A stretch of DNA of 64,000 nt from Vicugna vicugna (Eukaryota): the NCBI GenBank assembly GCA_013265495.1, contig MU058065.1, positions 5,890,302 to 5,954,301 of the forward strand. The letters are read 5' to 3'. Each line of letters starts with the position of its first letter. The first letter of the stretch is position 1. A program made the position numbers and the translations under genes. The notes beneath the pieces were generated by a model, which was not told where the DNA came from, did not search any database, and was given only the letters and a program-made list of their open reading frames with translations. Shown here in pieces: positions 20,706-64,000 of this stretch.

Positions 20706-30351
<9,646 letters not shown>

Positions 30352-30417
30352 GGCCTCTTGGAAAGACTTCTCTTGCACTCGAGAAGGGAACATTCTCAGC
30401 TGAGCTGAAGCTGGATT

Positions 30418-30423
30418 ATTAAA
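30418..30423 (+). terminator. DNPEP polyadenylation signal (ATTAAA)
   Basis: ATTAAA 67 nt after the stop codon; the homologous hexamer is kept in the paralogous copies at 38606 and 50628. Confidence 0.75.
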
Positions 30424-31209
30424 GTGAATTTTTCACTCAAACTCATTCTGTAGTGCTAATTTAGAGGTTGGAGAGGTGGGAGTTCAACCTGGCTTAAACT
30501 TCTGGAACCAGAACAGATGGGGAGGTTAGGGTACAGGTAGAAAAGGCTACAGCTTCTGGAAGTTGATGGAGGCCTGATTTCAAATCTCTTTTCTTTCTTT
30601 TTTAAGCTCCTGCCGGATGCAGAGGGTGGGTGGGTTCACAACGAGAGGGTTACTTCTCCCATCCCCAGGCCTTCCATTCCTAGAGTAGTCCAGGAGCCCA
30701 GCTTGGTCCTCTCAGGCCTGGGTGCTCAGCATTAGCGCCCCCTTAGCTGCCCTGGGCAGCCCAGACTTTCCCTCCCTCCCCTAATCCCTCCCTGCCCATC
30801 CCAGGCACAGTAAAGAGGAGGACACAGTCTGGACTTCAGCCTCACCCTTCCTCATCCCCTTCACTTAGCAGCTGCTCGTGTTACTTGATTGTTAATGTAT
30901 TACCAAGAAAAGATTATCACTGAAAAGATCAAAATAGGAAAAGTCAAAGTCTGCTCATAAACTCTTCTATCAAAACAGTTGTGCTAATTGCTGTCTTTCC
31001 AATTACTTGGATACCAATATAAAAATTTTTTATATAAAATGACCATTTAAGTTTTTAAAAACAAGATGCATAAACAATGCTTGTGGAGTTAAAACATACA
31101 TGATTAAACACAGTACCGTAAAACTCAGGAGAAGTATACGTGTTAAAGAGTCCTAAGGTTCTTGCAATGTCCAGGAAGAGAGTGAAGGAATCAGTTAATA
31201 CTATACCTA

Positions 31210-31336: not shown

Positions 31337-31421
31337 ACTTAATATTATACTTTGAAGTCAAGGATACATACTGTAATTTTTAAGAAAACCACTAAAAGTT
31401 CAGAAAGAATCTATAGCTTCC

Positions 31422-31889
31422 ATTAGGGGTTGAATTGTGTCCGCCCAAAAATGTTGAAATCCTAACCCCTAGTACCTATCAGCGTGTTCTTACTTAGAAA
31501 TAGGGTCTTTGCAGATGATCAAGTTAAGATGAGGTCATTATTGTGGGTCCTCATCGAATATGACTGTGTCCTTGTAAAAAGGGGAAATGTGGACACACAG
31601 ACAGACATGCACAGAGGGAAGAAGATATGAAGACAGGGAGGATGCTGTGTGAAAATATAGGATCCGAGTGATGCATTTACAAGCCAAGGAGAGTCAAAGA
31701 TTGCCAGCAAACCACGTGAAGCCAGCAGGAGGTGGGAAGGATTCCCCTACAGGTTTCAGAGGGAGCACAGCCCTGCCAACACCTGGATTCCAGGCTTCTA
31801 GCCTCCAGAACTGTAAGAGAACAAATTTCTGTGGTGTCAAGCCACCTGGTTTGTGGTACTTTGTTATAGCAGCCCAAGGAAACAGTACA
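31422..31889 (+). mobile_element. MaLR solo LTR (MLT1-type)
   Basis: GGGTTGAATTGTGTCC...TAGGGTCTTTGCAGATG...GCCTCCAGAACTGTAAGAGAACAAATTTCTGT...TTTGTTATAGCAGCC. Confidence 0.85.
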
Positions 31890-34649
31890 ACTTCAAACTA
31901 ATTGAGTGAGGAAAATGGGGTAATAAAAAATAATAGGTCTATTCTGCAACTTCACTTCAAATGGTTCAGCAAAACCATATTATGTATGTAATAGAATATA
32001 GTAAAATGAGTTGACTCTAGGACAAAAAGCATTGACTCCAGGTAGAGAGACCGTAGGTGTTCATTGTACTATTTTTTTCAAACTTTTGTACGTTTGAACA
32101 TTTTTATACTAAAAGTGTGGGGACAAATTTTAAAAATTCAACCCGAAAGAAGGAGAAATGAGGAAAAAGAAGGCGAAGCAATAGAAAGCACTTAAGATGG
32201 TAGACAAACTCACATAGCTCTAGTTACAATATTAATAAGTGGACTAATTATATCGTGAAGTTGTTGCTTAAAAAAAGTGGACTGTTTCAGTTAAAATACA
32301 GAGACTGTCAGACTCAAAACAAAAAGATATAGAAAGCTGACAAAACATTACTATAGATTCTTTTTTGAATTTCACAAATGTCTTATATGTACTCTTTTTG
32401 TCCAGATTCTCAGATTCTTTTTTTTTTCCCCAATTTTCCTGGCTTATTTTGATCAATGTAGTATTTTTGAGATTTACCTATGTGGTAGCATCTGGAAGTA
32501 GTTCTTTCCTTTTTATTGCTAAATATTATTCTTTTATGTAACTATACCATAGTTTCTTCATCCATTCTCCTACTGACGATAATGGGTTGCTTCTAGTGTT
32601 TGTCTATGATGAAGAAAGCTCTTAAGAACATTCTAATACAAGTATATTTGTGGACAAATACTCATTACCCTTGGATATACAACTAGGAATAGAATTGCGA
32701 GATTATAGGATAGATGCATGCTTATTTTTATAAAACACTGCCAAACAAGTTTACAAAGTGGCTGTGCCATTTTACACACCCACCAGAAATATGAGAGTTG
32801 CAGTTGCTTTACACCTTTACCTACACTTGGTATTGTCAGTCTCTTTAATTTTAGCCATTCTATTCAGTGTGTAGTGGTAACTTACTGTGATTTTAATTTG
32901 CCTTTTCCTGATAAGTAATTTTGAGCACTTTTTTTTGTGAGCGTATTGGCCATTTGGATGTCCTTATGTGAAGTTACTATTCAAATATTTTGATCATTTT
33001 CACTGAATTATTCATCCTGGTCTTATTCATAATATTGAGTATACATACACACATAGAACTTACATTCTGAATGTTTGTGTATGTACATATATATTCAGAA
33101 TCCAAGTCCATTAGATACATGCATCACATTGTCCCCCAGTGTGGGGCTAGTAAAGTTGATTGATTTTTAAAATATTTTTCAGTTTTATTGAGGTATAATT
33201 TACATACAAGAAACCGCACCCATTTAAAGTATACGATTCTGTGAATGTTTAGATATATACTCCTGATAAACCACTTCCACAATCAAGATCCAGAACATTC
33301 CCGTCACCCCCCCAAAAGATTCCTTGTACCCCCTGTGCAATCAATCAATCTCCCTCCACCCCTGAGCCCCAAGCAACCAGTAATCTGCTTTCTGTCAATG
33401 TAGATTAGTTTGCATTAGTTTTGCCTTTTTTGGAATTTTACATCAATGGAATCACGCAGTCTGTGATTTCTGTGTCTAGTGCATAATCACCCGATTGTTT
33501 CTCCTTAGATCTATTAACATGGAGAATTATGCTGATGGATTTTTTCCTAATATCAAGTCATACTTAGATTCCCAGAACACGTCACATTATATTATTTTTT
33601 AATGGGTCATTAATTGTGTTTGACAACATTTTATTTCACTTTATTTGGGATTTTTGTGTGTGTATTTATAAATAAGATTGATTTGCAGGGTTTTTGGTGT
33701 GTTACCAGGTTTAGGTATTTTACTTTTGCTTCATAAAAATGTTTTTGGAAAATTTCCTGTTTTATTTACTTATTTAATTATGCTCTGAACAATTTAAACA
33801 GCATCCTAGGATTATCTGTCTTGAAAATGTGTAGACTTCCCCTGCAAAATCGTACTGACCTTGATGCTGCTTTGTGGAAATTTCTTTCATAAATTTCTCT
33901 ATTTGTTGTATGGAAATTGGTGTGCTTAAACTTTCTATCTCTAATGGCATCAATTTTTGTAAATTTTATGTTTTAGAAGTTGGTCATGTTATCTAAGTGC
34001 TCATATTTATTTGCATGGTTCTCTAAAGCAGTCTCACTGGTAAGTTTTTCTCCTCTGGGTAATAATTTCTCCCTCTAATTTCATAATTTCTCTCCTCTCT
34101 CTCTCCTTCTCCCCTTCCCCCATTTCCCTCCTTTCTTCTTCTTCCTCTTCTTCCTTTTTGCATTTTTTCATTCTCCCTTTTTCTCTTAAGTTAGCTAGTA
34201 GTTTGCCTATTTGGTGGATCTTTTCTTAAGTACCGGCGGGGGTATGTATTCATTAGTGCTAAGCATGTTGGTGATAAACCTGCCTGCTGTTGTATCTCAA
34301 TTACCAAGCCTCTCACTCACTGGGGACGGCAGTGGTGGCTGTCCTCTCAGGCAGGGTTGACGGCAGGGAACGCTGCTTCAGAACTGAGCTCCCTAGTGTT
34401 GATGTGATAATGGCATTCAGAACGGCAGAGACCAGGTGGCAGCACTTTACCACGAGAGTTGGTAGTATTTTGTGTCTCCCAATTATGCTGTAAGCACAGG
34501 TTCTGAGTATTTTTATTTCCTTCTTTCTCCTTTTTGTTAAACTGCATGATTTCTGGAGGATTCTTAGAGAGATTTGGACTCAGGCAGCTGCTGATAGCCC
34601 ATGGGGACTGCAAATGTTACTTGTAATAGTAAAATGTTGACGGTGTTTG

Positions 34650-35115
34650 CAGAGGGCGCTGTGGGTAACCTAACTGCGTCTCTCACTCTTCCCACTTCAG
34701 TGAACTTGACCCCACTTCCAACTGCCAATATCTGTACTTCTTTGCCTGCAGGCTTTCTTTTGCTGCTTGACTACAGTTTTCCACTCACATGGCAGTTGGA
34801 AATGCTAGGGAACTCATGCTCTCTACCCCAGAGCAGCTCTAACCAGTGACTGGTGAGACTTTGGGTATGAATCCCCCAGCTCCCGCATGTCTTGGGTGAG
34901 ATAACTCCCCAAGGTGTGTAGTTTACACTAGCTCCCAGAGTCTCTCCAGCAGGATTAAGCCCAGAATTAAGCCTGATAACACACCCCTTTATTGGCCACC
35001 CTCCCTTCCTTGTCTCACTGCCCCGCATCCCTACCAGTGTTCTCCTTCACCTCCCAAATAAACTCCTTGCCCTCAGATTCTTGTCTGGGGTCTGCTTCTG
35101 GGGAAACCTAAAGTA
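34650..35115 (+). mobile_element. ERVL-type solo LTR (LTR16-like)
   Basis: ATAACACACCCTTTATTGGC...CACCTCCCAAATAAACTCCTTGCCCTCAGATTCTTGTCTGGGGTCTGCTTCTGGGGAAACC. Confidence 0.65.
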
Positions 35116-35239
35116 AGTTAGAATTCCTTTGAAATTGAGAATAAGTTAAGAATGCCTGCTATTCTGTTTCTATTGAACACTGTACTGTAGGTCCTGAATT
35201 GGAGTGGGCAACTCCGAGTGTATGGTGAATAGAAGACAT

Positions 35240-38200
35240 GAAAGTTGGGGGTGGAGAGAGGGAGGTGATTCCTTAGGAGAAAGTGTCTCACACTTCCTGG
35301 AAGCAGTTTCATGGTAGCAGGGCTCAGAAGGGAGGTTGGCTTTGAGTTCGAATTACTACTATTAATCACCATAGGTTTTAATGTGCAAATCATGCCTTAG
35401 TGTTTTCAAAGCACTCTTTACATCTTCAGCCTCATTTGATTCTCATAACAGCATCATTATTAAATTCCCGCTTGATCACATAATACATGCCAAGCACTGT
35501 GCTAAGAAACTTACATGCATTGGCTCCTGTCATTCTCTCAACAACTCTCTGAAGTTAGTCATTTCATAGATGAGAAAACTGAAGCTTGGCAAGTTTAATT
35601 AAATTTCCCTTGGTCACAGAGCTAGTAAGAACAGGGACTCAAATACTGAGCTGGGCAGAAGGCAAACTCCTGCACCCCAGCCAGTCTCTGGATTCCTCCA
35701 CCTTGTGGTCGCTGTGCACTTTAGGGAAAGTGGAAATTCAAATCACACTCTGGTTTCTGGGGTGGGTCTGTCAGACTGGCCCAAGTGTTAGCTCATTCCA
35801 TCCTTTCACCATGATATCACTAGAGATGTGAAGACTCAGAAGTTGGAGCACACGCCCAGCCTCCATGGCCCGGAGACCTGCTCAAGGGATGGGCAGGCGA
35901 CCTTTCCCACCAAAACCACCAGACCAAGGTGTGTGAGGCCTGTGCCCTGTCCACACTGCACATGTCTGGTAGACAGAGCAATTGGGAAGGAAATGAGTTT
36001 TAGGGCTATAGGTAGGAGCTGTCAGAAGTCCTATGAATAGAATGAAGACAGGGCCTGTCTGATTTCAGCCAGAAGCAACCCCATGATCCATTAGTGATGT
36101 CTGCAAAGGGAGGGGAGTGGGAAGCACACCTTCTATTTGCTATCCCCAACTTAATCTTTGTCTTCTAGGGGCAAGCTCCAAGAGAAACTGCCACTGTTTT
36201 TCCCTAGGGTGAGAGTCCTTCATGGATTTTGGGCCTCTTCTCTTCTTCCCTGGGCCCTTTCACCCTTTTCTCTTCACCTTTGACTCCTGGCTTCCCTCCC
36301 CTCAGAGCCCAGTGACCAAGGTGAACAGGGAGCAATGCTTGAACTCTGAAGTGGTTTCAGAGGCCCTGAACCAAGAGGTGACCAACCCCAGCAAGGCCTT
36401 GCTGTGTGTGTTTTGGTGAGGGGGGCTGGCCTTGTCCAGGAAGGCTGAGCCAGCCAAGAGTCTGTTTAAAGAGGGAGGCAAGGTGAAGGAAGGGACAGGT
36501 GTTGGCTGATAAGGAATGACAGGACTCCACTGAGCCTGATGGAGAACCTTCAGGAAGAGAGGGCCTGGAGGATAGGAAAGAACAGAGCTTTCAGTACAGA
36601 CAAAGCCAGCCCAATCCTGGCTCTGTCGCTGCCCAGCTGTGACCTTGGACACATTATCCAAGCCCTTCAAGTCCCTTCTTCCACAGCTGTGAAATGGGGA
36701 TGGTAGTCATGGTGACCCTCAGGGATTGATGTAAGAATTAAAGACAACTGTATGAAAAACGCCTTGGCTGCCAGTGGTTGCTGGATTCTAAGGGAGATTC
36801 TTCCTTTTGCCCACTGGAGGGTGCCCCCACAAGCATCTTTACACAGACACCTTTACACAGATTGCAGAAATGTGAGATACAGGGGTTGCGGGTCTCCAGT
36901 GGCCTGGTGTTCTGTAAGATCAAGCACAGGCACAGAGCTCGAAGGACCTGCAGAAATCTACTTCAGAACTTGTCTAACTTAAAAAGTATATACACAAGCC
37001 CTGTTTTTCTAAGAAAATCTTCAGTATGACATGACCCTAATCCTCCCCTCACCCACCCATCCGTATGTATTATACGTACATACATAAAGATTTTGTCCTA
37101 AAATGAAGTGGGAGAGACGTAGCCAGAGCACCTTACATTCAGCCTCCCCCTTGCTCTTCTCTTGGTGTCGAGGAATTCACCTGAGTAAAGCTTTCAGGCA
37201 TCTCTTGGGACCCTTAAGTTCTTTGGCGCCAGGAGAGAAAATCTCCCATCTAATAGGTATCTACCCGTCTTTACAGATGAGAAACTGAATGGGCAGGTGT
37301 GGAGCAGAACTAGACCAAGTGTCCTGACTCCCAGCCGTCCCTCTGCACTGCCCACACCCTTCCTCCCAGGGACCCTGGTAGAGGTTGGGCTGCTTCACAC
37401 CTCAGACTTTTTTATTCAAGGATTGCCTGAGGAGGTGACTACTTGAACTTTAACCTAAAGAACACAAAGAAACAGCCAGGGGGAGAGCTGGAGGAAGAGT
37501 CCGGAAGGCGGGGAGAAGCAAATACAGTCGCCCTTAGGTGTGATGGTAGAACTTTCAGGGCAATGGACAGTATGGCCTGCGGCAGGAGAGGAGCTTGGAG
37601 ATGAGGCCCAGGACTACTCAAGGTTTTTTTTTTCAAACATTTTTTTATTGAGTTATAGTCATTGTACAATGCTGTGTCAAAGTCCAGTGTAGAGCACAAT
37701 TTTTCAGTTATACATGAACATACATATATTCATTGTCACATTTTTTTTCGCTGTGAGCTCAAGGTTTATAATCTACAGACAGCCTCTGGGTTTGATTCAA
37801 AATGCAGTGGGAAGTCATCAGGGGATTTTAAAGGAAAGAACAGGAAAATATGATAAATATTTTCTAAAGTTACACTGATGCTGATGGAAAAATAGATTAT
37901 GAAATGGACAAGAAGAGAAGCAAGTAGACCTTTTTGGGGCTACTGAGTTATCCAGACAGGATCTGTTGGTACCTCAGACTAAGATCGGGGCAGCGTTGCT
38001 GAGAACCTCCACCTGGGCTCTGTCTGGAGGCGGCCTGCTCCTCAGAGGCACTCCAGCCCTTCACCCTTTTCAGAGACACTAGTCCCATCCCTGTCACCAT
38101 GGCAGCAGAGCTTCCTTAGCTCGTATTGGCTGCTGGACCACATTATCGGTCCTGTGACTGACCCTGTGATGAGGACTGGTTACCATGGTTCTATCAAGTA

Positions 38201-38750
38201 TGTAAACAAGGAGCTGCCAGTCTCCTCCAGGCTCAGGGGACGAACCAGCCCTGTGTCTAACAGAAAATCTGTGGTAGGAGATGGGACTAGAGACAGGGGC
38301 CAGGGGAGGGCCTGCAGTCTGACAGTTTCTGAGCCACTAGTCTCAGGGCCTATTCAGATCAAGACTGCTATTGAGATTCCTTCTGAATTTGGTTGAGGTG
38401 GGGTGGGTGAGGGAGTAGCAACACCTACCTCATTGCATTCACTGAAAATTGCTAGTTTCTTCCCATTTTAGGGTGTTCTTGAGCTGTTCCCTACTCTGAG
38501 TCACAACCTTGCAGCTGATTAAGGCCTCAGGGGAAGCCTCCCATCCTCCACACCTTCCCTGGTGCTTTCCAGAAGGGCAATTTCAGGCTGATCCAAATAT
38601 GGGTTATTAAAGCCAATTTCCAAGAAAACTCTTTCTACAGACTTGTCTAGAAGTAGGATGGGCGGGGCTTGGACCTGACCAGCGTCTCAGAGGTGAGAAA
38701 AGTGGGATCCGAACACAGGGGAGCTTGGGGTATGGAGGACAGAGAGCACA
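35240..38750 (+). pseudogene. Decayed RESP18-like copy A (PTPRN exon 4 / DNPEP exon 12-15 chimera), 5'-truncated
   Basis: Exon 3-like 35811-35928 (acceptor deleted); 40-nt exon 4-like 36169-36208 (GKLQEKLPLFFPR); 90-nt exon 5-like 36306-36395 (SPVTKVNREQCLNSEVVSEALNQEVTNPSK, GT donor lost); DNPEP exon 14 remnant ~38001-38075; terminal exon 38472-38522 (GVLELFPTLSHNLAAD*); ATTAAA 38606-38611. No exon 1 or 2 homologue found upstream. Confidence 0.88.
37627..37757 (-). mobile_element. Young L1 3' end inserted in pseudogene copy A
   Basis: Same 3'UTR family as the 3071 element; 10-bp TSD CTCAAGGTTT at 37617-37626 and 37758-37767. Confidence 0.8.
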
Positions 38751-39260
38751 GCCCCTGGTTGCCCTGCAGGCCTGGCTTCAGATCCCTTCCTCCTCCCACA
38801 GCCCATTTCTAAGGCAGGTTAGAGGCAAGGTGGAACTGCAGCCAGAGCAGCAGCCATCCCTACTCACAGCCTTCAGATGCGTCTCCTTGGTCTTCCTTCC
38901 ATTTGTGGAAGGAAAATGTTCTCTCCAGAGCCCAAGTCTGAAAGGCCTGGTATGTTGCTCTGCCTTTTGAGGTTCACGGTATCCTCTGAGCATTGGGGTC
39001 CCCTACAGAGCAGTCATGCCAGTCCTGGCCCCAAGAAACCACACAGAGAATAATGCAGCTAAAGGCTATGCACATTTAACAGGCTGATATCTGTGGCCGG
39101 TTTGCCACATTTCCTGGGAGGCAGGAAATTAGTCACCATTGCTCAACACAGCCGAACTCCAGCTGTCGCGTGTTCCAGGATTTACATTTCTCAAAGCACC
39201 TTCACACTCAGTTCATTTGATCCTTGCAAATAGGAGCACATGGAAAAGTATCAAGACCAC

Positions 39261-42039: not shown

Positions 42040-42920
42040 CTGACCACATAGAGTCTTGCAGGTAATAGTAAAGAGTCTAGATCTTACACAAAGGACAGAA
42101 GAAGATCATTAGGGCTTTTAAGGAAATGAGTAGAATAATGATGCAAAAATTTTAAAGACCAGCTTAGTACTGTTGGAGAATGTATTGACAGAGGGCAAGA
42201 GTGGAACAGATAGATCTGTTAGGAAGTATTATTTTGGTCCAGGGAATACTGCAGTAGTTTGAACTGGGCAACCACACAGAGCCAAGAACCTCCAGCTGGC
42301 CATGGACTTTACCCAGAGGAGCCTGAGCCTCAAGGGGAATGCTCTCCAAGGAAACAGCTTCTGACTTCTGTCACCATGGCAACTGTGCTTCATTTGCCCA
42401 GAATGGTTGCTGGGGTGACACATCAGCACTGAGTGACTGATCACCACAATAAGAACTGGTTACCATGGTATAAAGTCTGCAAACAAAAAGCTGCCATTCT
42501 TCTCCAGGTTAGAGTTCTTGACTAGCTATAAATCTAAGAGAAAATCAGGAGCTGGAGAGAAGATCAGGGCCAGAGAGCCAAGGGGAGGCCAGCTGTGGGG
42601 CAGTTGCTGAGTCATTTTGCCTCAGAACTTGCCCAAATCAAGACAGCTATTAGAGGGGAAAGGGGAGTTTACATTGTAGAGAGGGAGTACTCCAGCACAT
42701 ATACACACAAATTACAAATTCCACATTTCCTTCCATTTTAGGGCTTCTTTGAACTGTTTCCTTCTCCAAGCAAAACTTTGTAGCTGACTGAAGCATCGCT
42801 ATCCTCCACCCACTGCACTGCCATTTAGAGGGGCAGGTCTAAGACAACTTGCTTCAGAATTTTTAATGTGGGTTTTGGTCAAAATCCTTCTTGTGGGCTT
42901 GTCTGATGGCAGGAAATGTG
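42040..42920 (+). pseudogene. Decayed copy B: 3' fragment of the RESP18/DNPEP-derived unit
   Basis: DNPEP exon 14 remnant ~42281-42350 (AACCTCCAGCTGGCCATGGAC), intron 14-like sequence, and terminal exon 42742-42791 (GGCTTCTTTGAACTGTTTCCTTCT... = GFFELFPS) with a 1-nt deletion and degenerate poly(A) signal; flanked by L1 sequence on both sides. Confidence 0.85.
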
Positions 42921-43930
42921 GGCCCTAATAATTAAAACACAAAAAAGTAATGCTTAGAGGGAAAATATAGATTTACTTGCGTTTATTGTAAAGAAAAAAA
43001 AATTGAGTCAATGATCTAAGCTACTAACTCAAGAAGCTAGAAAAAGATAAGCAAAACTCAAAGAAAATAGAAGGAGATAATAGTAAAGAATGGACATCAA
43101 AAAAATGGGTAAACAATAGAGAAAAACCAATAAAACCAAAAGTCAGTTCTTTAAAAAGATCAATAGCATTTGTAAATCGCTAGCTACACTGATGAAGAAA
43201 AAGAGAGGAAAAATATGAAGTATCAAAATCATGAATTTAAAAAGTGAAATCACTTCAAATTTCTACAGCCATTAAAATGATAAATATTATGAATATCTTT
43301 ATGCTAACAAATGTGATAACTTAAATGTTAGAGACAAATTTCTTGAAAAATTCAAGTTTCCAAAACAGACATGAAAAGAAATAGAACAACTGAATAGCTA
43401 AAGAGATTGAAATTGTAATAAAACTTTCTCACAAAGAAACTCCAGGCCCAAAGAGGTGAGACGTATAGCTCAGTGGTAGAGCCCATGCTTGGCATGCATG
43501 AGGTCTTGGATTCAATCCCCAGTGCCTCCATTAATGGGGGGAAAAAAGAATCTCCAGGCCCATACACTCAAACAAGTAATATCAATCATACAGAAACTCT
43601 TTCAGAACATAACAAAAGAGGAATGCTTTCTGACTGATTTTATGAGGTCAGGATAATCAAACATTTGGAAGAAAGCATAGGAGAAAAATCTTTGTGAATT
43701 TGGGATAGGCAAACATTTCTAAGAACACAGAAAGCATTAGTGATAAAAAATAAAGTCAATAAATTGGACTTCCTCAAAATTAAAATACTTTGCTCTTCAA
43801 AAACACTATTAAGAAAATTAAAATTAAGTGCTCAGAATTGGGGAAAATATCCATAAAGCATTAACCTGTTAAAGAAGTTGTAACCAGAAGTACTAGAGAA
43901 TTATGTCAATTATGGAATAGTAAATATTTT
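42920..43930 (+). mobile_element. Old L1 ORF2 fragments
   Basis: A-rich sense L1 ORF2 motifs (AAAGTCAGTTCTTTAAAAAGATCAATA, AAATTGGACTTCCTCAAAATTAAAA). Confidence 0.78.
43453..43544 (+). mobile_element. Camelid tRNA-derived SINE inserted into L1
   Basis: tRNA-like head; 18-bp TSD AAAGAA(A/T)CTCCAGGCCCA at 43433-43450 and 43545-43562. Confidence 0.88.
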
Positions 43931-45316: not shown

Positions 45317-48300
45317 ATGCAGCGCCTGCTGTGGTCTGGGGGCTCCCGGGGGCTCTGGCTGCTCCTCTGTTTCCTGCTTCTGAACAGCCGCCCAGGGGGC
45401 TGCAACGACATTGGTGGCCACGGTCAGGAGGAAACCTGGGGGGTGCGGGCAAGGCTAGAGAGCGATTCTGAGCGAAGCACGCTGGGATGGGGGAGCTCAA
45501 GGTTTGGAACTTAAGAGGAAAGTAATGTGTTTAGGGGTGAAAATAGATGAATGTAGAGAGCATCTCGCCCAAAGAGGCGCAGGCTTGGAGTGGGGCTCGG
45601 CATAGGGGCTTTGCGACTCAGAGGACTCAGGGAAGCCCACTCAGGGGAAGACTGGGGATTTGGGAGGAGGACGGGGAAACATGCATTGGGGGAAGTAAAA
45701 CTGGCCTGTGAGGCCGCAAGAAAAGCAAGACGAGCCAAGGGGCCAGGGAAAAGATGCCTATGGCTGAGGGGTAGGCAGGGGACTAGAATCTCTAGACTGC
45801 AGGAGCAGGGACCGCGGGTTATCGGAGTCCTGGCTCCGAAGAGAAGGCTGGGCCGAGGGATGAGCCAAGGCTTCTTTATAAGCCCCCCAGAGCCTGGTGT
45901 CAGCGATCCAATTTCTGCTAAGAAGTGGAAGGCTAGGCCGGGGTAGAAGAGGATGGAGAGAGAAACAGTCCATCCTTTTTCCATCCCCTTCACTCTGAGC
46001 CAGCCAGGTAGACCATCGCTGACTCATGTCTGAGCTGCCAGAGACCGACTGCGCAGACTCAGGGATTCCAGCGCCTGGCGCGTGGGGCAGACGGCGCAAA
46101 CTCAGAGACTAACGCCAACTTTCCTCCCCCTATCTGTGGGGTTTAGATGCCAATGCAGAGGACTCCCGAAGAACTGTGGGAGGAGGCCTGATGTCAAGCG
46201 ACAGGAAGCAAGGCGTGGGGAGCGGGTGGGGGTTGGTTGTAAGGACGATCAAGCCTTGCGGGAATGCCCAGCTCTCTTCACCGCTCAAAGTCGCCCCCAT
46301 GTCAGGCTTCGGCCATCACTCAGCACCGCGGACAGCGCCAGGAGCCCTGTGGGTCTGACCCAGGGTGTCCAGGTCACTGCTTTTCCTATCCGTTCTGGGA
46401 GTGCTGCCTCAGAGAACAATCTCTCCTTCCAGAAGCTCTTTTCCTTCTCAACAGGGTGCTGGAGGTTCTGGTCCTTCCTAAAGCCAGGAAATTAATACTA
46501 GGATCCATTTGACTGGGGAGAATTCCCAGTCCATAATGACTTGTGGTAATTCCACTATAGGGAAAACAAACAAACAAACAGACTCCAGTCCTACCCATCT
46601 ACCTGGAATAAGGAAAGTGTGTATAGCGTTAGGGATTATCTCCATCTCCTTTCCTTCCCTTATGCAGAGTCTGCCAAACTGTGGCTTTCAGGACAAGGAT
46701 CCAGACACTCAAACCCTATACATACCATACTTTTTTTCCTTTAAGGATTCCAGACCTCCTCTGTAATCCCCTCCAGGCTTCAAAGACTTCCCTGAATGCA
46801 ATTTGCCTGTTTTCCATGCCCTGCCTTTTCACCTGATTATCCATTTCATGTGTGTAGCTTTCTGAGTCTCTGCTTATCTTAACCTCCACAGGATGCTCTT
46901 TGCCTGTAAGCTTGGTTCTTACTGGAAGTTGGTGCCAAAGATGAATGAGATTCAGGGGCTGAAGAACAGGGAAAGTGGTGATGGGGAGGGAAATATGAAA
47001 AGAAGGAGGACTTGAAATTAGGAGGGAGTCTGATGAGGGGGACAGAGACCAGTGAACCCAGGGATGTTAGTGGGAGGAAGCTGCTTTCCTTCAACTGGGA
47101 TTTGTAAGTCTTCTGGCCAGGCTCCTTTCTCACACCACTATTTTGCTCTTAGATGGTCAGAGCCAAGTGGGAGTGGGGCAGCTCTGGTCCCTCCAAGGAT
47201 TTACTACCCCAGTCTTCCAGCGCTTGCAAGTTTTCTTCCAGCAGATTGTGCCTCAAGGTGAGTAAAAGGTGAAGAGAGTCTGGGACCTGGTCAGATACAA
47301 GGGTAGGTAATAATGAGGGGCTTTTTATCTGAGAACAGGTTTTCTTCCCCAGATATCTCTTCTTGAAACTTTTCTGTCATGCTTACCTCCTGGAGGACCA
47401 GGTGGGACCAGAGTAAGTGTGGAGCTGGAAGGACAGGCTGTTTGCACTTGAACATCCTGGAAGAACCCAGTAGAGGCTTCTAGAAGAAGCCCTTGGAAGA
47501 TGTCAGCATCCAACTCCTTGAGACTAGCCCCAACCCCAACCACAGGCACTATCTGAGATTTTACAGAGACAGGAATCCTTAAATTCTCAGCCAGAACACA
47601 CACACACACATATACACACACACTTCAGCTTCTGAGTAGGAAGCAGAGCAGATTATAGGACAAATAGAAGGGAGGAATGAAGGGAGTGAGGAGCCTCTTG
47701 AAGACAGATGGCCAACCCTTCCTTATAGCAGAGTTGCATGAATGAGAGAAGAGTCAGATAGGAAATGCAGCTTGAGTTCATTGTACTACTACCACTACGA
47801 ATGTCTATCATGTTTATAATGCCTTAGAGCAGCGGTTCTCAAAGTGCATCTCTGGACCAGTAGCAGCATCACCAGGAGACTTGTTAGAAATGCTAATTCT
47901 TGAGCGTCATCTCAGACCTCTTGAATCAGAAACTCTAGGAGTGAGGAACAACAATCTGTGTTTTAACAAGCTTTTTGGGAGATTCTGATGCACCCTAAAG
48001 TTTGGAAATCACTGTCTTAGTTTTCTCAGCAATTTTTATATCCCTAATCTCATTTAATCCTCACAATAGCATCAAATGAATCAGCAAAAAGAGTATAGTC
48101 TTAATCCTAACTGAACATTTATTACATGCCAGGAACTGTGCTATGCAACTTTTATATGTCATCTCATTTAATTCTCTCCACAAATTGTGATCTTTTATCT
48201 ACCTGAGGGAGAGGGGGAGTGTTGATCTCACTCTGGTCCCTGGAGTGGGCCAGTTAGAACATCCCTGGTGTTAATTCACCACATCTTTTCACCCTGCAGG

Positions 48301-50550
48301 TTTGTTCTGGAAGGATGACATGACCCAGAATGTGATGACCCAGAAGATGGGACACATTAGCAAACTCCATCCCCAGGATCCATGTGTGAGGGTTGGACAG
48401 GCAGCCTTTCCCACCAGAACCACTGGGATGAGGTATGTGAGGCCTATGGTCAGTCCATGCTGTCTGACTGACAGACAGAGCAAGGAGGGAGCAGGCATTA
48501 ATGCAGGTAAGAGCTGCCAGGAGCACTATGAGAATGATTCAGAGGTCCTGTCTGTGATCTGCAGGAAACAGTTCCATGAGCCATTAGTAATGTCTGCAAA
48601 GGGAGAGGAGGCGGGTGCTAACAAGCCTAGGTCCCATTTATCATCCTCATGTCTTTTAGGGGCAAGCAAGAGGAGAAACTTCGACTCTTATTCCCCAAGG
48701 TGAGACCCATGTGTCTTCTCAAGACATGAATCCTGACTTTGGGTCCCATCTCTTTCCCTCAGGGGCTCTGCCACCTTTTTCTGTCTCCTTCTTGATTCCT
48801 GTCTTCCTTCTTCACAGAGCCCAATGGCCAAGGTGAACAAGGATCAGTGCTTTACCTCCAGAGTGGTTTCAAAGGCCTTGAAACAAGAGGTGGCCAACCC
48901 TGTCAAGGTGAGGGCTCACTTTTTCTTGGGAGGCTAGAATCACCAAAGACTTCTTTAAATGAGGGAGGCAGGTGTGAAGGAGGGAATGGGCATTGGGATG
49001 TGAACAAAAAAGCTGAAGAAAATATCTTTCCCAATTGAATGGTACCCAGATTTTCCTGTCTCTCAGACCACCTTTGGGTGTCCAAATAAGAGGTTGAGGG
49101 GCATGATGTAGGTGCTGAGAGCCTCTAAGGGTGAAATGATCTATAGTATCATGAAAAACAATTGAGTTTAAAATAGGCATGCAAAATTGAAGGGTTTCAC
49201 AATTAAGTAAAAGGTCCCTCTTTTCTCCATGCACTCCTCTGTATATAGCAAGTGATAGTGAAGTTACTTTGGATGAATGGAAGAGGTAGCCCAGAGGCCT
49301 TTGCATTCAGCACCTCCCTGCCTTGCTCTACTCTGTGGCCTGAGTGAGCATCCCAAGGTTCTGCATTATCTCTTTGGGATGCTTGAACACTTCAGAATTC
49401 GACTGAAAACACTCATATAGCCCTCCCATCTATCTTTATAGATAAGACATTGGGGCCCAGGCTGGTCAAGCAGCTTACTCAAGGCTTCATAGCAGGTTCG
49501 TGGCAGAGCAAAGACTGGACCCAGGTGTCCTGATTCTCAGCCCTTTCCCCTGAAAAGCCTCTGCCCTTCCTCTCAGGGACTGCAGCAGGGGTTGGGCTGT
49601 CCCACATACCAGACTCTTCAACATGGACAAGTCTTTTTTTGGACTAAGGCCTAAATTACAAGAAGGTGCCAGCCAGAGGACAATATAAAGGAAGGGCATC
49701 CAAGGCAGAGAGCACCATACTGACAAATGCCCTGAGACAAAGATCCATAGTATGTCTGAGGGACAGATGGAAAAGTCAGTGGTAGAGAATTAGGTTAGAG
49801 AATGTAGGACTGGGGTTGACCACACAAGGACTCATAGATCATGGTGGAAGGTTTGGATTTTATTCCAAGTATGGTGGCAAGTCGATGGGGAAATTTTAAG
49901 GAAAGGGATATCATAATGTGATATGATTTGAAAAGACCACTCTAGTGATATTGGGGGATGGATTGTGAGAAAACTAAGAGTGAAAACTAAGAGGCCTATA
50001 AGGAGCTGATCATCCTGGTACAAGGGAGACTGAGGTGGCTTGGACTGGAATGGTGGCAGTGGAGTCAGCACCTCCAGCTGGCCGTGCACTCCATCCAGAG
50101 GCATCCTGCATCTCTGGGGCTTCCAGCCCCTTATGCTCTCCTAGGAAACCTGTTCTCACTCCCATAAGATGGCAGCTGGGCTTCCTAAGCCTGGATCGGC
50201 TGCTGGGTCGGAGCACACAGAGCTAAGTGAAGACCACCTTTGGGAGACTTGTTGGTGTGGTGCTTTCAAGAAAACAAACAAGATACTGCCATGCTTCTCC
50301 AGCCTGAGCCCAAGGGAAAATCACAGGATGAGAACCCTATGAATTCCATGTGGGAGCAAGGGGACAAGCACTCAATCGATGGACTGAGTTACTGTGGGCT
50401 TACTTAAATCAGGCTGTTACTGAAGCATTTTGGAACGACTAGGTGAGGGAGGGGCCACCTTCCCACATACTGATTCCAATCCTTTGTTTCTTGTTTTAGG
50501 GCTTCTTTGAGTCACCCTCCACTGTAGGCCACAACCTTGTCGCTGACTGA
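45317..50550 (+). CDS. RESP18: Regulated endocrine-specific protein 18, complete, 6 coding exons, 174 aa with N-terminal signal peptide
   Basis: Exons 45317-45422, 47153-47257, 48300-48432, 48660-48699, 48818-48907, 50500-50550 (525 nt, all GT-AG, frame preserved). Protein: [174 protein letters not shown]. It resembles rodent RESP18 as I recall it and sits at the expected position between DNPEP and PTPRN. Confidence 0.93.
46319..46339 (+). promoter_or_regulatory. RE1/NRSE (REST-binding) element in RESP18 intron 1
   Basis: CTCAGCACCGCGGACAGCGCC is a near-perfect canonical RE1, at the position homologous to the PTPRN element. Confidence 0.85.
46892..46940 (+). pseudogene. Dead exon: remnant of PTPRN exon 2 within RESP18 intron 1
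   Basis: CCTCCACAG|GATGCTCTTTGCCTGTAAGCTTGGTTCTTACTGGAAGTTGGTGCCAAAG|AT aligns to PTPRN CCTCCACAG|GCTGTCTGTTTGACCGCAGACTCTGCTCTCACCTGGAAGTCTGTATTCAGG|GT, with two 1-nt gaps and donor GT>AT. Confidence 0.8.
47830..48014. mobile_element. MER5A-like hAT-Charlie element in RESP18 intron 2
   Basis: Terminal inverted repeats CAGCGGTTCTCAAA / TTTGGAAATCACTG; internal TTGTTAGAAATGC...GAATCAGAAACTCT...TGTGTTTTAACAAGC. Confidence 0.8.
50064..50145 (+). pseudogene. Dead exon: 3' half of DNPEP exon 14 within RESP18 intron 5
   Basis: CCTCCAGCTGGCCGTGCACTCCATCCAG matches DNPEP CCTCAACTGGCCATGCACTCCATCCGG (PQLAMHSIR); 5' half missing and donor GT replaced (CTAG|GAA); the downstream ATGGCAGCTGGGCTTC matches DNPEP intron 14. 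Confidence 0.85.
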
Positions 50551-50627
50551 GACCTCGTGCAAGCCTCTCTGCCCCAGTGCCCTCCCCATTGCCCTCCAGG
50601 GAGGTAGTTCCAGGATGAATCTCCAAC

Positions 50628-50633
50628 ATTAAA
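50628..50633 (+). terminator. RESP18 polyadenylation signal (ATTAAA)
   Basis: ATTAAAGTG 78 nt after the stop, homologous to the DNPEP ATTAAAGTG at 30418. Confidence 0.7.
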
Positions 50634-57659: not shown

Positions 57660-58100
57660 CCTTGGGGAGCAGCATACGTCAAGATAAGGTCAAGTGGGAA
57701 TTCTAGTGAGGCGCCTACTGTTTGGTGTAGGAGGCTGGGGTGGGTAGGACCGCGGCTAAGACAGTGCTCTTACGCCACGTATGACGCAAATTAGCGCAAG
57801 TGCTGGGGGTGGAGGTGTCGTCACCACATACCCGGGGTTGGCGGAGCTGCTGCGAGAGGGGCGTGTAGACCCCGCCTCGGTGGGTGGGGAGTGGCAGGCC
57901 CCGCCTCGGCCCCTTTGGCAGGCTCCGGCCGGCGTCGCTGCGGCTCTGGCAGCGGAGCGAGAGCCCGGAGCCTGGAAAGATGCGGCGCCCGCGGCGGCCT
58001 GGAGGTCCCGGGGGATCTGGGGGTCTCCGGGTGCTCCTCTGCCTGCTGCTGCTGGGCAGCCGCCCGGGAGGCTGCAACGCCATTAGTGCCCACGGTCAGA
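57660..58100 (+). promoter_or_regulatory. PTPRN CpG-island promoter with CRE-like sites
   Basis: CpG-rich region before the ATG; CRE-like motifs TACGTCA (57675-57681), TGACGCAA (57782-57789) and CGTCA (57819-57823); CCCGCC GC boxes near 57870 and 57900. Confidence 0.75.
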
Positions 58101-61100
58101 AGGGAACGGGGGTTGGGGGGAGGGGAGGGGAGGATGGTGCCGGGAGCAAAACTCAGTGGGGGATGTGGAGGGCAAGTGCCAGGAAGGTAGGAATCTTAGG
58201 TAGAATGTATGTGTGGAGTGGGGTAGGGGAGGCACTGAGAGATGAGGAAGACGAGAGGGCCTCTTAGAGGAAAGGGGCGTAGGCCTGGAGGTGGGGCTGG
58301 GAACACGGGGGCGGGACCTAAGAGAAGCGGGCTCAGGGGAAGATTGCGGTTATGGGAGAAGGAATGGGGGTGCATATGGACAGAGGGACCTATAGAGACA
58401 GGATACAATACCACGGGAGAAGCCAGTCGCTCCAAGGCGCCAAAAAGTGGCGATTGGCGCTGAAGGATGGAGGGGTGGAGGGAGGGAGAGGGAACCCTGA
58501 TCTCTGGGCAGTAGAAGTCGGGGCCGTGAGCTTTGGGGTCCCAGCTTTCAGTAGAAGATCAGGCCGAGGGAGGATCCAGGGTTTCTCTTCAAGCCTAGAG
58601 AGGCCAATAGCTATAATCTGATCTCCGGATAAGAGGGGTACAGCTGGGGGAGGGGCAGAAGAGAGTGAAGAGGGAAGGGTCGTCTCCCGTCCCCCTCCCC
58701 ACAGCCAGGCCTGGTGCTGACTCACATCTTAGAGGACAGAGACAGTCAGCGCTGACTCACGGGCAGGGGGAGGGTGGGAGCGGGGGGCGTGTGGGGGAAG
58801 GGGCGCAGCCTCGCCGTCTGGCGCTCTCCTTCCCCACCCGGCTTGGAGGCCAATACAAGGTACTTCCTGTGGCGCTGCGAGTTGGTAAGGTGGAAGATGA
58901 AGACTGGAATGGCGCAGAGGTCGGGTCCCTTGGCGACTCCTCACCCTGTCACCCTTCCCTCCCCCCATAACTGCTTCCAGGCAAGCCTTCAGCGGCACCA
59001 AGCTCAGAGCTTCAGCACCGCGAACAGCGCCAGCGGCATTGGGGCCACGGACCGCAGGGACAGTGTGGGGAGCATTGCCTTACCCCACCCTTACCCCTTT
59101 CCCCTAAAAGGGGAAGTGTGCTAAGGTTTCCATCTCTTCCGAGTCCCGGGCCATCATAAGATGCTTTTGGTGATTTGGGAAGGAAAGTCCCTTTTTTCTC
59201 AGAACTTGGCAAAAAGCTCTCCCACAGTAATTCTATGAGAGTAGAATATATGATTCTCTACTTTCACTACCCCCATGCACCTGGAGGGCTTCTTCTCCTC
59301 GTTACTTAGTTAAGCAACTGAAGATTTTAGGGGAAGAATCCAGACTTGCAAATCTTTAAAATCCAAAGCCAGGTCCTGTGCTTTCTTCTCTTAAGAATTC
59401 TAGGCCTCTTCTCACCTCTCCTCCCAGCTTAAAGTCTTCCTTAGAATGAAAGAATGAATCCCCTCTGCTTCCCCCTTTCCTAGCCTGTCCATCCATCTGA
59501 CCATTCTGTGTGTGCGTGTGTGTGTGTCTGAGCCTATGCTCACCTGTCCTCCACAGGCTGTCTGTTTGACCGCAGACTCTGCTCTCACCTGGAAGTCTGT
59601 ATTCAGGGTAAGGCCCAGACACAGGATATACAAGATGGGGGTGTGTGTGGTAGGGTACACAGTAAGAAAGAAGTGGGGAGTGGGAGGCCTGGAAGGGAGA
59701 AGGGGAATTGGGTTTGAGGAGAAAAGGGACTGGCCTGGAGGAGCAGAGCTCTCTGAAGCCAAGAGAAGAGTTAGACGTAGTGCTGTCTATTTGCAACATG
59801 GGCTTTGGAAGGCCTCTTGGAAGCCCCTTGTGACATGACTTTTTTGCTCTTAGATGGCTTGTTTGGACAGTGCCAGGTGGGAGTGGGGCAAGCCCGGCCC
59901 CTTCTGCAAGTCACTTCCCCAGTTCTTCAACGCTTACAAGGTGTGCTCCGACAGCTCATGTCCCAAGGTGAGGTCTAGGTGCACTGGAGGAGAGAGACTG
60001 AAACTTCATTAGATAAGGGTGGGGAAGTGAGGGGCCACCTGACTCAAAGGTTTCTCTCATGGAGCATTCCTATTACAGCCACTCTAGCGCCTCACCTTCC
60101 CAGGCCTTGCTGGAGGAGACAGGAGTGGGGGTGGAACCCTAGAGATAGGCTTTTCACATGTAGACTCTCTGGAGGAATCCAAAGGAGGTTTTTAGAAGAA
60201 GCCACTGGAACAGACCAGCATCCATCTCTTTAGGACCAGCCTAATCTCTAGAACTGACTGAGTGCTCCAGAAACATGAGTTCTGGAGTCCTCAGCCAGAA
60301 CAGCCCACTCATCTAATTCACTCATTCAACCAGTATTTATTGGGTACTTCTGTGTGGCCAACATAGTTTTAGGTGCTTGGGATGTAGCAAGGAGTAAAAC
60401 AGACAAAGATCTCTGCCTCCTGGGGTTTACATTCAGGGGTGAAGGGAGGGAATACATTATATAAATTAGAAAATATATAGTGTATTAAAAGGTAATAAGT
60501 ATCATGGGAAAAAAACAAATACTATAGTAAGATAAAGGAATCATAAATAGTGAGGTAGGAAGCTGCAGGATTAAATTGAGTGGTCAAGATGGAACTTACT
60601 GAGACTATGAAATTTAAATAAAGACATCAAGGAGGTGAGGGTGTTTTCCAGAAGGTTATCTAGTGGAAGAGTGTTTAAGGTGGCCAGAGAGCTAGAACAT
60701 GCTCCCTAAGGTAGGAGAATGACTTTGAGGAACACCATGGAGAACACCTTTACAGTGTGGCTGTAGAGGAGTGATGGAGAAGCAGAGTAGAAGATGCAGT
60801 CAGGTAGGTGAAGAAGAAGGATTTTCCTCTAGGATTTTATAAGAGAATGTGTGGACATTGGCATTACTCTGAGTAAAAGAGGAAGCCATCACAAGATTTG
60901 AGCATAGGGGTGCATGATCTCACTTCTACTTTAAAAGGATCACTCTTGCTGCTGTGTTAAGAACAGAGTGTAGGGAGTCAAGGGTAGAAACAGAACACTA
61001 AACATTAAAAGCTACCACAATAACTCATATAAGTGAAGAATAGGTGTGGATGAGGGTGGTTGCAGGGAGGTAATGAGAAATGACAGGATTCTGCCTATAT

Positions 61101-64000
61101 TTTTAAGGTAGTGAGCATGATTTCATGAAATATTGGATAGAGCCATGAAAGAAAGGGAGGAGTCAAGGATGACACTCAGGTTTTATTGCCTGAACAACTG
61201 AGTTGATGGACATGTCATTAACTCTGCTGAAGGATCAACTGGGGGTAAGGGGTGTTCAGTTTTGAATGTTCTTAGTTTAAGATAGCCATTCAAATAGAAT
61301 GGGAAGTTGAGTACATAATCTTGGGTTTAGAAAGAGAAAAGTCTGGAGTGGAGATATAAATTTGGAATTCTTTGATATATAGATGGTAATTAAAACCTTG
61401 AGATGGATGAAATAATCAAAGGATTGAATGTTTACGAAGAAGAGCCCTAGAGAATTCTAATATTAAGAGGATGAGGAGAAGGAGTATAACTATCAAGGGA
61501 GACTGAGAAGGAGAAGCCAGTGAGGTAGGAGGAAAAACAAGAGTGTTTGGTGTCCTGGAAGCCAAGAGAAAGTGTATCAAGGAGGAAGGAGTGACCAAAC
61601 AGTGTCAAATGATGTGGTAGGTTAAATCAGATGAGATCTGAGAATTGACCACTTAATTTAGATATACGGAAGCCCCTGGTGATCTTGGTGAAAGCAGTTT
61701 TAGTAGAATAGTTGGAAATAAAATCCTGGGTAGGGTGGATTAAGAGAGAATGGGAGGAGAGGAATTGGATATAGCCAGCATAGGTAACACTTTCAAAGAG
61801 TCTTGCTGCAAAGAAAATCAAAGACAGGGTGATAGATGGAGGGGAATGTAGGATCAAGCAGAATTTTTATAAGATGGAAGACATTGCATCATGTTTGTGT
61901 GCTAATGGGAATAATTCAGTAGAGAACAGGAGAAAATGATGATGTAGGAAAAAGGGGAGGATTGGGGGGGAGATTTTTCTGAGTAGGTGGTACGGATGAA
62001 ATCTAGTGCTCAAGTGGAGGAACTGGCCTTATACAGGAACACAGAGATTTCATCTAATGCTAATAGGCAAAAAGGCTGGTATGGATGCTAGTAGACCCCA
62101 GGGTGTGAATTAAGAACAGTACAGATTATTAACCCAGAAGCAGAGGAAAAGGAATAGGGGAGTGGGTGTGGAGAGTGGGAGATTATTTCTTTAGAATAGG
62201 TGACTGACCTTTCCTGAGAGCAGAGTTGCATTGAGGGAAGCAGCCAAACAGATCTGCCTCAGCATAAGATGGTGGTGACGAATGTTTAAAACAAGTGTAT
62301 AGTACTTTGGAGTTTTCCAAGCACTTCGATTTCCCTGATTGCATTTAATCTTTACTACAGATCCATAAAGTATGTATTATTCTTATTTTACATATAAAGA
62401 AAACAAAGGTTCAGGGCCCCAAAAAAGAAGAAGATGAATAATAATTATGATGATGATAATAATAGCAGTTATGGAAAGCACACTATGTATCAGGTACTAT
62501 TCTAACTATTTAATGTTGTGTTATTTATCACAACAATCTTAGCAGGTTATAAACCACCATTTTTCAGATGAAAGAACTGAGGCTCAGACAGGTTCAGCCA
62601 AGGTCACACAATTAGTAAGTGGCAGAGGATTTAAACCAAGTCTCACTCCCAAATCTATACCTGAGGGTGGGAAAAGGACAGCTCAGATCACCCACTGAGT
62701 CTCCAAACTCCCTCCACTGCTCTTCTGCTCTGCCAAATTCAGTACACTGCAAGGTAGGGGGTGCAGTTTTTATCTGCACTGGTCCCTGTTACTGGGCTCT
62801 CAGACTGTCCCAAGCCAACCATCTTACCCTATCCTGCTCCCCGGCAGGACTGTCCTGGCACGATGACCTCACCCAGTATGTGATCTCCCAGGAGATGGAA
62901 CGCATTCCCAGGCTTCGCCCCCCAGAGCCCCATCCAAGGGACAGGTATGCATCCTTTCTCATCATCTCTAGCATGACAAGGCTGCTGGGTCTGATGGACA
63001 GAGGGACATGGGCACGAAGCAGGCTGGGGCATGGGTAAAAGAGGTTCTGGAGTGGTCATCTGACATGTTCACATGCCCAACATAAGCTGAGTTCATCCCC
63101 GGGGACCCAGCTAAACAGGGACATTAAAAGATGTTTTGAAACATTTGGACATTTGGAATTTTTAAAGAAGCATCAAAGTAGTCATCATGAAACAAATTAG
63201 AATTTTGTTGGACCTAAGTTGTTTAATGTTCAGTTTGATTACTATGTGGAATTGTATATGGTAGGAGGTACCATCATCTTTTTGTGGTTAGGGTCTCTGA
63301 AGGCATCATTCAGACCCTGTAAAGCAGAGGAAAGTAAATGAGGGCTTGGGGCTCAAATGATAATACCAAATAAAGAAGGCACAGTGGGGCTGGGGGAGCA
63401 GAGTGAGGGGGCACAGTACTGAATGTCTGAACGTGTACTTGGAGACCCAGGTGCGGGGACATGCACACCGGGACAGTGAGGCAAGCTGCAGCCAGAGTTG
63501 GTCTAGAGAGGTTCCTGGCTGCCTTTCCCTGCTACTGTTCTCCCTTTCTCTGTCCCGTAGCCTCACGCTTCATCAGTTCCGCCACTGTGTTTCAGGGACC
63601 CAGGCATGCTTACCAGGGAGGCAATGACCTCTGCTCCAGGCTTGGCCCTCTGGCCTTCCCCATGCTACTCCCTCCTTTCCTGAGGCTACCTCATCTCTTA
63701 CGAAGTCAGGCTCACCCTAAGCTAAGCCTGCCTGGCCCCTTCTCTCTGTCTCGTAGGCTCTGCCCCACACAACCAACACACACACATACACAAACACACA
63801 CACACACTTTGCTTTCCTCCCCAGATCTGGCTTGGTGCCCAGGAGACCTGGTCCCACTGGGGAGCTGCTTTTACAGGGCATCCCCACTGGCTCTGCTCCT
63901 GCTCCCCAGCACCGGCTTCCTCGACCTCCAGTAGGTGGGGGCGGAGCTGGGGCGGGCTCCTCCCTGTCCCCTCTGCAAGCTGAGCTGCTGCCCCCTCTCT
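57980..64000 (+). CDS. PTPRN: Receptor-type tyrosine-protein phosphatase-like N (IA-2/ICA512), 5' part; continues beyond the window
   Basis: Exons 57980-58094 (MRRPRRPGGPGGSGGLRVLLCLLLLGSRPGGCNAISAH), 59557-59607 (GCLFDRRLCSHLEVCIQ), 59854-59967 (DGLFGQCQVGVGQARPLLQVTSPVLQRLQGVLRQLMSQ), 62848-62944 (GLSWHDDLTQYVISQEMERIPRLRPPEPHPRD), 63825->64000 (SGLVPRRPGPTGELLLQGIPTGSAPAPQHRLP...). Canonical splice sites, phases consistent. Confidence 0.97.
59011..59031 (+). promoter_or_regulatory. RE1/NRSE (REST-binding) element in PTPRN intron 1
   Basis: TTCAGCACCGCGAACAGCGCC versus the canonical RE1 TTCAGCACCnCGGACAGCGCC (one core mismatch). Confidence 0.8.
60305..62090 (-). mobile_element. L2 LINE remnant in PTPRN intron 3
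   Basis: Begins with the antisense L2 tail CACTCATTCAACCAGTATTTATTG, followed by L2 motifs (TTAAAAGGATCACTCTTGCTGCTGTG, GAGGGAGTCAAGGATGAC, GGTGTCCTGGAAGCCAAG). Confidence 0.82.
63765..63807. repeat. (CA)n repeat just upstream of the PTPRN exon 5 acceptor
   Basis: Direct reading. Confidence 0.85.

Follow-up and report, generated by a model that had tools for sequence, protein, structure and literature searches.

A 64,000-nucleotide stretch of the Vicugna vicugna genome (contig MU058065.1, positions 5,890,302 to 5,954,301; hereafter the window) carries an intron-containing unit resembling RESP18, here called copy A, which raises the question of whether a second RESP18-type gene once existed beside the first. 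Along the forward strand the order is DNPEP, copy A, a shorter unit (copy B), RESP18 and the start of PTPRN. A first-pass annotation had read copy A as a pseudogene of the RESP18 chimera, a fusion of PTPRN and DNPEP sequence. That copy A is a chimera pseudogene in the camelid stood up to analysis, but sequence comparison identifies it as an old sister of RESP18 with ancestral features, not as a copy of modern RESP18. Copy A is a new, unrecognised member of the known RESP18 family. We consider it probable that it is an old tandem re-duplicate of the fusion gene, which remained functional for a long time and was then disabled lineage by lineage.

Shared architecture and camelid lesions

The proposed collinearity of copy A with RESP18 was borne out by alignment over the full unit (Table 1), with the match to RESP18 intron 2 beginning at 35184 instead of the annotated ~35240. 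For the exon-3 block the score is 170, where shuffled sequence reached at most 31, and for the intron-2 block it is 53, where shuffling reached 30. Copy A and RESP18 are 69% identical (1075/1556) over the seven non-coding blocks that could be aligned and 71% identical in coding exons; 54 of the 97 residues encoded by exons 3–6 are the same. The exon-3 remnant matches the Pfam RESP18 family (PF14948) with 38.2 bits against a cut-off of 25 (E 1.8e-9).

The annotated PTPRN/DNPEP junction was recovered, with DNPEP homology entering at the same point, DNPEP 26342-26354, in both copy A and RESP18, and with the PTPRN exon extended by 36 nt in both. Immediately before the junction the PTPRN-side intron match scores 29, no better than shuffled sequence (maxima of 28 and 32); the PTPRN side is instead identified by exon 3, with its Pfam RESP18 match, and by the intron upstream of it. 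A deletion of ~310 nt, by which the penultimate DNPEP exon lost its acceptor half, is common to copy A, copy B and RESP18; copy B lacks the fusion point itself and consists of a 3' end with this exon deletion. The shared junction and the shared deletion argue that all three units descend from one fusion. All three also lack a 1.7-kb insertion in the DNPEP intron (27770-29470), which we take to be L1-like and which splits an older element.

Further insertions bear on the order of events. RESP18 lacks a ~1.8-kb insertion, presumably L2-like, that lies in PTPRN intron 3 (60313-62090), and runs directly from one flank of that site to the other, so the fusion would predate the insertion. A ~185-nt insertion in RESP18 intron 2 (~47830-48015), which we assume to be MER5A-like, has an empty site in both copy A and PTPRN and provides a dating marker for the split between copy A and RESP18. 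The region upstream of RESP18 (44422-45003) is homologous to that upstream of PTPRN (56763-57383), suggesting that the promoter travelled with the duplication.

A single duplication spanning the 3' end of DNPEP and the 5' end of PTPRN would have created the fusion, and unequal crossing-over between the resulting repeats may then have produced copy A, copy B and RESP18, by analogy with the Drosophila Sdic cluster. The 3' segments of the units are 57-62% identical, and the four segments are nearly star-like (19, 24 and 18 informative sites), a pattern that does not demonstrate unequal crossing-over. A four-way tree of 3'-segment DNA that paired copy A with RESP18 (89%) was set aside, since it reflected 24 sites against 19 and 18. 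The annotated small tandem array is present as copy A, copy B and RESP18, with RESP18 alone intact in the camelid; the accompanying statement that one member survived is unsafe outside camelids, because the annotations of horseshoe bats include spliced isoforms of copy A whose reading frames are long.

In the camelid, a deletion of exactly 21 nt at 35810/35811, first described as ~21 nt, removes six intronic and 15 exonic bases and with them the exon-3 acceptor. In all four copy-A exons the homologous frame is open. Exon 4, splice sites included, is intact, in agreement with the first-pass annotation; the terminal exon is intact too, with its stop codon, and the annotated ATTAAA signal is present. 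The reported GT>GC change of the exon-5 donor, by contrast, was a misalignment. The homologous donor, GTGAGG, is kept at 36416, where it aligns with the donors of DNPEP and RESP18 behind an 8-nt insertion, and the GC at 36396 belongs to coding sequence that DNPEP and the copy-A orthologues keep and RESP18 has deleted. Orthologous exon 5 sequences end in ...PLQ or ...LLQ and continue into an intron matching the sequence past 36416 (P0133, P0135). A GC-AG donor at 36396 was accordingly rejected, as alignment with DNPEP and the orthologues puts the donor at 36416. The exon-5 lesion is a net insertion of 8 nt, and the resulting 110-nt exon would shift the last exon and run into a stop after eight codons. 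The DNPEP exon from which exon 5 derives has 34 codons and RESP18 exon 5 has 30, the extra codons being kept in copy A. A weak in-frame GT is also present in copy A exon 5, at 36408.

The reported absence of exons 1 and 2 was upheld. Across the array, 27 local alignments (nine queries by three gaps) gave no remnant of RESP18 exons 1-2, PTPRN exons 1-3, the promoter or intron 1: the best scores, 18-43, were equal or close to what shuffled sequence yields (maxima 22-41), and positive controls reached 145 and 185. The space where these exons would sit is occupied by repeat-derived sequence, presumably L1 and LTR, classes named from reading the sequence and not from a repeat library. With its 5' exons absent, the camelid locus has no N-terminal signal peptide of the kind found in the RESP18 family. 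Loss of the promoter-side exons, together with five codons of the segment that condenses granule cargo, leads us to predict that the locus is silent at the protein level, a dead gene without a protein product. Introns retained near the parent, 5' loss, a lost acceptor and the exon-5 frameshift are all features of a duplicated pseudogene.

Relatives of copy A in other mammals

The cross-species evidence consists of protein models and records. With exon 3 of copy A and of RESP18 as queries, an initial search for homologues yielded 11 proteins out of 14 candidates, all of RESP18 type. When 89 proteins were scored exon by exon, the N-terminal part of wild-dog P0051 (KAM8900798.1) was the only one to favour copy-A exon 5 over RESP18 exon 5 (116 vs 69), and this A-type unit lies upstream of RESP18 within the same model. 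A profile built from it gave five hits among 46 candidates, one of them an ordinary RESP18; the matches include colugo P0094 (XP_008561437.1) and Rhinolophus sinicus P0095/P0096, and the bat and colugo models carry PF14948. Clusters of these matches contained isoforms X1-X6, R. ferrumequinum P0097 (KAF6362088.1), which has an intact terminal exon, and P0102, which comes from a 1229-base contig and whose frame crosses four exon joints, so that it likely represents a spliced transcript. Read-through isoforms of R. sinicus translate the 3' UTR and score 92.8 bits to copy A versus 40.8 to RESP18. One R. sinicus isoform uses an intron stretch that matches copy A only, isoform X6 splices into the downstream RESP18 exon 3, and in bat models P0105 and P0109 copy-A exon 5 is spliced to downstream RESP18 exons.

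An exhaustive search gave 42 hits, 27 of them new (24 read, all 27 mapped). Twelve of the new sequences were judged A-type by reading (five by higher copy-A scores including flanking intron, three by near-identity to named A models and four by shared signature residues), three were PTPRN and the rest RESP18. The annotation had asked for an orthologous copy in other mammals, and A-type models are available from the wild dog, the colugo and two horseshoe bats, where databases file them as 'RESP18', 'RESP18-like' or 'uncharacterized'. No paper on a RESP18 paralogue was found among the titles and abstract openings that RESP18 searches of an open-access library listed.

A tree was built from 31 rows and 102 columns, without the exon-5 tail; in it the five A rows group together as a clade (98/98), and the approximately unbiased (AU) test rejected a pairing of camelid copy A with camelid RESP18 (p-AU 1.3e-5). 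R. ferrumequinum has both genes, RESP18 (P0066) and copy A (P0097). Copy A differs from RESP18 orthologues in its separate clade and its 34-codon-type exon 5. Four RESP18 proteins whose exon-3 scores favour copy A over camelid RESP18 (P0059, P0060, P0061 and P0079) were rejected as orthologues of copy A, having a short exon 5 and lying outside the A clade. P0079, with an A-like exon 3 and a short exon 5, falls weakly beside that clade (87/67), which may reflect ancestral states or gene conversion.

Since the A clade spans camelid, dog, bats and colugo, the duplication predates the split between Laurasiatheria and Euarchontoglires. Dating against Afrotheria by substitutions gave p-AU values of 0.32 and 0.41, which do not discriminate. 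The four-codon deletion in exon 5 is present in all three afrotherian RESP18 models, as in other RESP18s, and is the single character that suggests a split between copy A and RESP18 before the placental radiation.

These relatives also reveal what the camelid has lost. P0110, P0124, P0126 and P0127 carry PTPRN-type exons 1, 2 and 3, and bat copy-A isoforms use exons 1 and 2, which argues that the loss of the 5' half in the camelid is secondary. PTPRN exon 2, retained in copy A of these relatives, has decayed in RESP18, where it survives in intron 1 (~46892-46942) with an end matching the exon used in the bat isoforms. Copy A further keeps a full DNPEP-type exon 5 and a DNPEP-like terminal peptide, ancestral features that RESP18 has lost. 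Judged from these models, the ancestral copy A likely had seven exons: PTPRN exons 1-4 and three DNPEP exons. The lesions seen differ between lineages, and none is common to all: the frame shifts late in exon 3 in canid-like P0124 and early in exon 3 in bat-like P0134 (both taxon labels being by likeness), ends in exon 3 in P0110, and is altered in the last exon in R. sinicus.

Probable past function and competing explanations

The camelid A branch carries 14 silent and 22 replacement changes over 85 codons, a silent excess that has a P of 0.005-0.028 under simulated neutrality and of at most 0.007 jointly with the absence of a stop. The neutral replacement share was 0.75, and the simulation settings (kappa 4, CpG x8, branch 0.2-0.3) were our assumptions. 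At most one frameshift occurred on this branch against 3.5-5 expected (P 0.04-0.14), and no stop is found in 97 codons of camelid copy A (P 0.08-0.18). Camelid and wild-dog copy A are identical at 41 of 59 residues (69.5%), above the 95% neutral bound of 60-65% at the camelid-dog distance of 0.30-0.35 substitutions per site; the figure for RESP18 between camelid and fox is alike, 63/89. In bat copy A the indels that fall in exons 3 and 5 preserve the frame. Among the spliced isoform models of horseshoe bats are some whose start resembles a signal peptide, and the hydrophobic core of bat P0102 is as strong as that of RESP18 (3.6 vs 3.5). The four open exons and the silent excess of camelid copy A make it likely that the gene was functional long after duplication, and we regard a long-lasting ancestral function as the better-founded expectation.

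The history that best accommodates these observations would begin with re-duplication of the whole fusion gene in tandem in a common ancestor of camel, dog, bat and colugo. Copy A would then have worked for a long period as a second secretory-granule protein gene before being disabled separately in each lineage, a deletion having taken its promoter and 5' exons in camelids. Its product would have combined a signal peptide, the RESP18-homology segment of PTPRN exon 4, which condenses granule cargo, and a DNPEP-derived tail probably too small for catalysis; this combination points to a luminal protein of the secretory pathway, like RESP18, and one that was likely short and disordered.

Several results pull the other way. 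Pairwise dN/dS between copy A and RESP18 is 0.37-0.40, which a neutral copy A beside a constrained RESP18 would fit (P 0.18-0.38). Copy A of camelid and R. sinicus is identical at 54 of 88 residues (61%) versus 60% for a translated 3' UTR control (80 columns), and RESP18 orthologues reach 64/86 (74%); with bat and colugo, conservation is 61% for copy A vs 74-78% for RESP18. Bat copy A diverges at close to the neutral rate. The branch test is noisy, RESP18's own branch showing 9 silent vs 22 replacement changes, and gene models are selected for open frames. In none of the models is the ancestral frame complete between exon 1 and the terminal stop: the tail is altered in R. sinicus, the R. ferrumequinum model lacks everything before a point within exon 3, and the colugo model is partial with its middle out of frame.

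How far function extends towards the present is a separate matter. That copy A is an unrecognised coding gene of the placental ancestor, encoding a second RESP18-type granule protein that was lost in many orders and is still translated in horseshoe bats, is a tentative proposal, and its last element, present-day translation in horseshoe bats, we would likewise call doubtful. A rather unlikely alternative is that copy A, although a duplicate of the whole gene, never possessed a protein function or soon lost it, and that it was already drifting as a transcribed pseudogene when the boreoeutherian radiation began, the bat isoforms being spliced noise from an inherited PTPRN-type promoter. The equality of bat-camelid coding identity with the UTR control, a dN/dS compatible with neutrality and the failure to find a full intact frame among the models would all follow from such drift, as would the many alternative tails and read-through splices of the R. 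sinicus isoforms; recognition of P0102 by the ESM Atlas was low, with no hit, and is uninformative. Drift accounts poorly, however, for 97 codons with no stop, a single frameshift and a silent excess on the camelid branch, for camelid/wild-dog identity above the neutral bound, and for unshared lesions and in-frame bat indels.

The absence of exons 1-2 from the window could also mean that copy A arose as a partial duplicate of RESP18 proper and was dead on arrival, but this is very improbable, as relatives carry PTPRN-type exons 1-3, copy A keeps four codons and a terminal peptide that are changed in all RESP18s examined, and it lacks the RESP18 intron-2 insertion. A recent camelid-specific duplication or an assembly artefact, the latter named by the annotation as grounds for refutation, found no supporting point and has a negligible probability given the 69% non-coding identity, the private insertion, the AU rejection of camelid pairing and the finding that at least half of the sampled words of 35700-36500 are present in six of 16 listed sequencing runs. 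Five of these runs, with shares of 0.99-1.00, belong to two studies, and one may be the source sample itself. One RNA-labelled run holds 0.14 of the copy A words, a fraction too small to be used as evidence.

As a camelid pseudogene copy A is ordinary. Its value lies in recording the ancestral state of the RESP18 fusion, with seven exons and a full DNPEP-type tail, which makes it possible to place the changes that led to RESP18 in sequence, and in representing what is likely an ancestral placental gene missed or mislabelled by annotation. At least one R. ferrumequinum 'RESP18' record and one from the wild dog are wholly or partly copy A, and such records can corrupt orthology and gene-loss calls. 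Should bats still translate copy A, it could serve as a naturally occurring variant in tests of which parts of RESP18 are responsible for granule condensation.

Array features and known systems

Features of copy A, its sister units and the parent genes are collected in Table 1. A run of 72 N bases at 3232-3303 is distant from copy A. Two observations concern RESP18 elsewhere: the star-nosed mole has two RESP18-type accession series (XP_012580702 and XP_0125846-7xx; P0033, P0063, P0106-P0108), possibly a lineage-specific RESP18 duplication, and giant-panda RESP18 (P0018, G1MEF3) is named 'Aspartyl aminopeptidase' in UniRef, an automatic echo of its DNPEP-derived tail.

Table 1. Positions in the window of copy A, neighbouring units and parent genes
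Feature	Position	Strand	Remarks
Copy A, whole	35184-38790	+	Intron-containing RESP18 paralogue; aligns to RESP18 47620-50800
RESP18-intron-2 homologue of copy A (3' part of PTPRN intron 3)	35184..35810	+	5' edge of detectable homology
Copy A exon 3 remnant	35811..35928	+	PTPRN exon 4-derived, +36 nt as in RESP18; PF14948; open, GT donor 35929
PTPRN-to-DNPEP fusion junction in copy A, approximate	35990..36015	+	RESP18 equivalent ~48500-48513
Copy A exon 4, 40 nt	36169..36208	+	From DNPEP 40-nt exon 26514-26553; AG/GT sites, open
Copy A exon 5, 110 nt	36306..36415	+	From DNPEP 102-nt exon 26678-26779; open over the length of 34 codons; net +8 nt at 3' end
Young retroposed insertion in copy A intron 5	37626..37760	-	Target-site duplication ~10 nt
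~310-nt deletion junction and leftover 3' half of DNPEP 168-nt exon	37995..38075	+	Missing DNPEP 29550-29860
Copy A terminal coding exon	38472..38522	+	From last DNPEP exon; AG acceptor, open, stop retained
Copy A 3' UTR homologue	38523..38790	+	ATTAAA at 38606
Repeat-derived block where copy A 5' exons would sit	31400..35120		Without homology to RESP18/PTPRN 5' exons
Copy B, third unit	42040..42925	+	DNPEP-derived 3' end only; terminal exon with 1-nt deletion, no ATTAAA
RESP18, intact sister gene	45317..50550	+	Exon translation near-identical to alpaca RESP18 (P0001)
DNPEP 3' part, parent of copy A 3' half	26342..30590	+	
PTPRN exons 1-4, parent of copy A 5' half	57980..63020	+	

Copy A resembles RESP18 in its fusion junction, the 36-nt extension of the PTPRN exon, the deleted DNPEP exon and the exon phases. 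It differs in its longer, 34-codon type of exon 5, in a last exon that resembles that of DNPEP, in the use of PTPRN exon 2 in relatives, in being broken in camelids and in evolving faster in bats and colugo. RESP18 itself is eroded in two Myotis bats, while its knockout is prenatal-lethal in mouse, according to Table 1 of PMC7498332; a copy A that was still coding could explain how Myotis tolerates this erosion.

The second point of comparison is the RESP18 homology domain of PTPRN/ICA512 (IA-2), where the greater part of the condensing segment is encoded by PTPRN exon 4, the source of copy A exon 3. Insulin condensation in vitro needs no more of ICA512 than residues 91-109 (PMC10201709). Unlike PTPRN, copy A has no transmembrane or phosphatase part, and the camelid deletion hits five codons of the condensing segment. 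Copy A also shares introns, a tandem position and disabling lesions with duplicated pseudogenes at large, but its reference gene is an unnamed paralogue and not RESP18.

The closest parallel to the array as a whole is Sdic of Drosophila, in which a duplication over the adjacent genes sw and AnxB10 gave rise to a chimera that expanded in tandem between its parents (PMC7475035). Here too, chimeric units with shared junctions lie between both parents, in the order DNPEP-A-B-RESP18-PTPRN and all on the forward strand. Sdic is ~1.4 million years old, near-identical between copies and variable in copy number, whereas the units of the copy A array are 57-69% identical and frozen. Unlike Sdic, one unit of the RESP18 array has decayed separately in several orders, and its units, 57-62% identical in the 3' segment, show neither copy-number variation nor continuing homogenisation.

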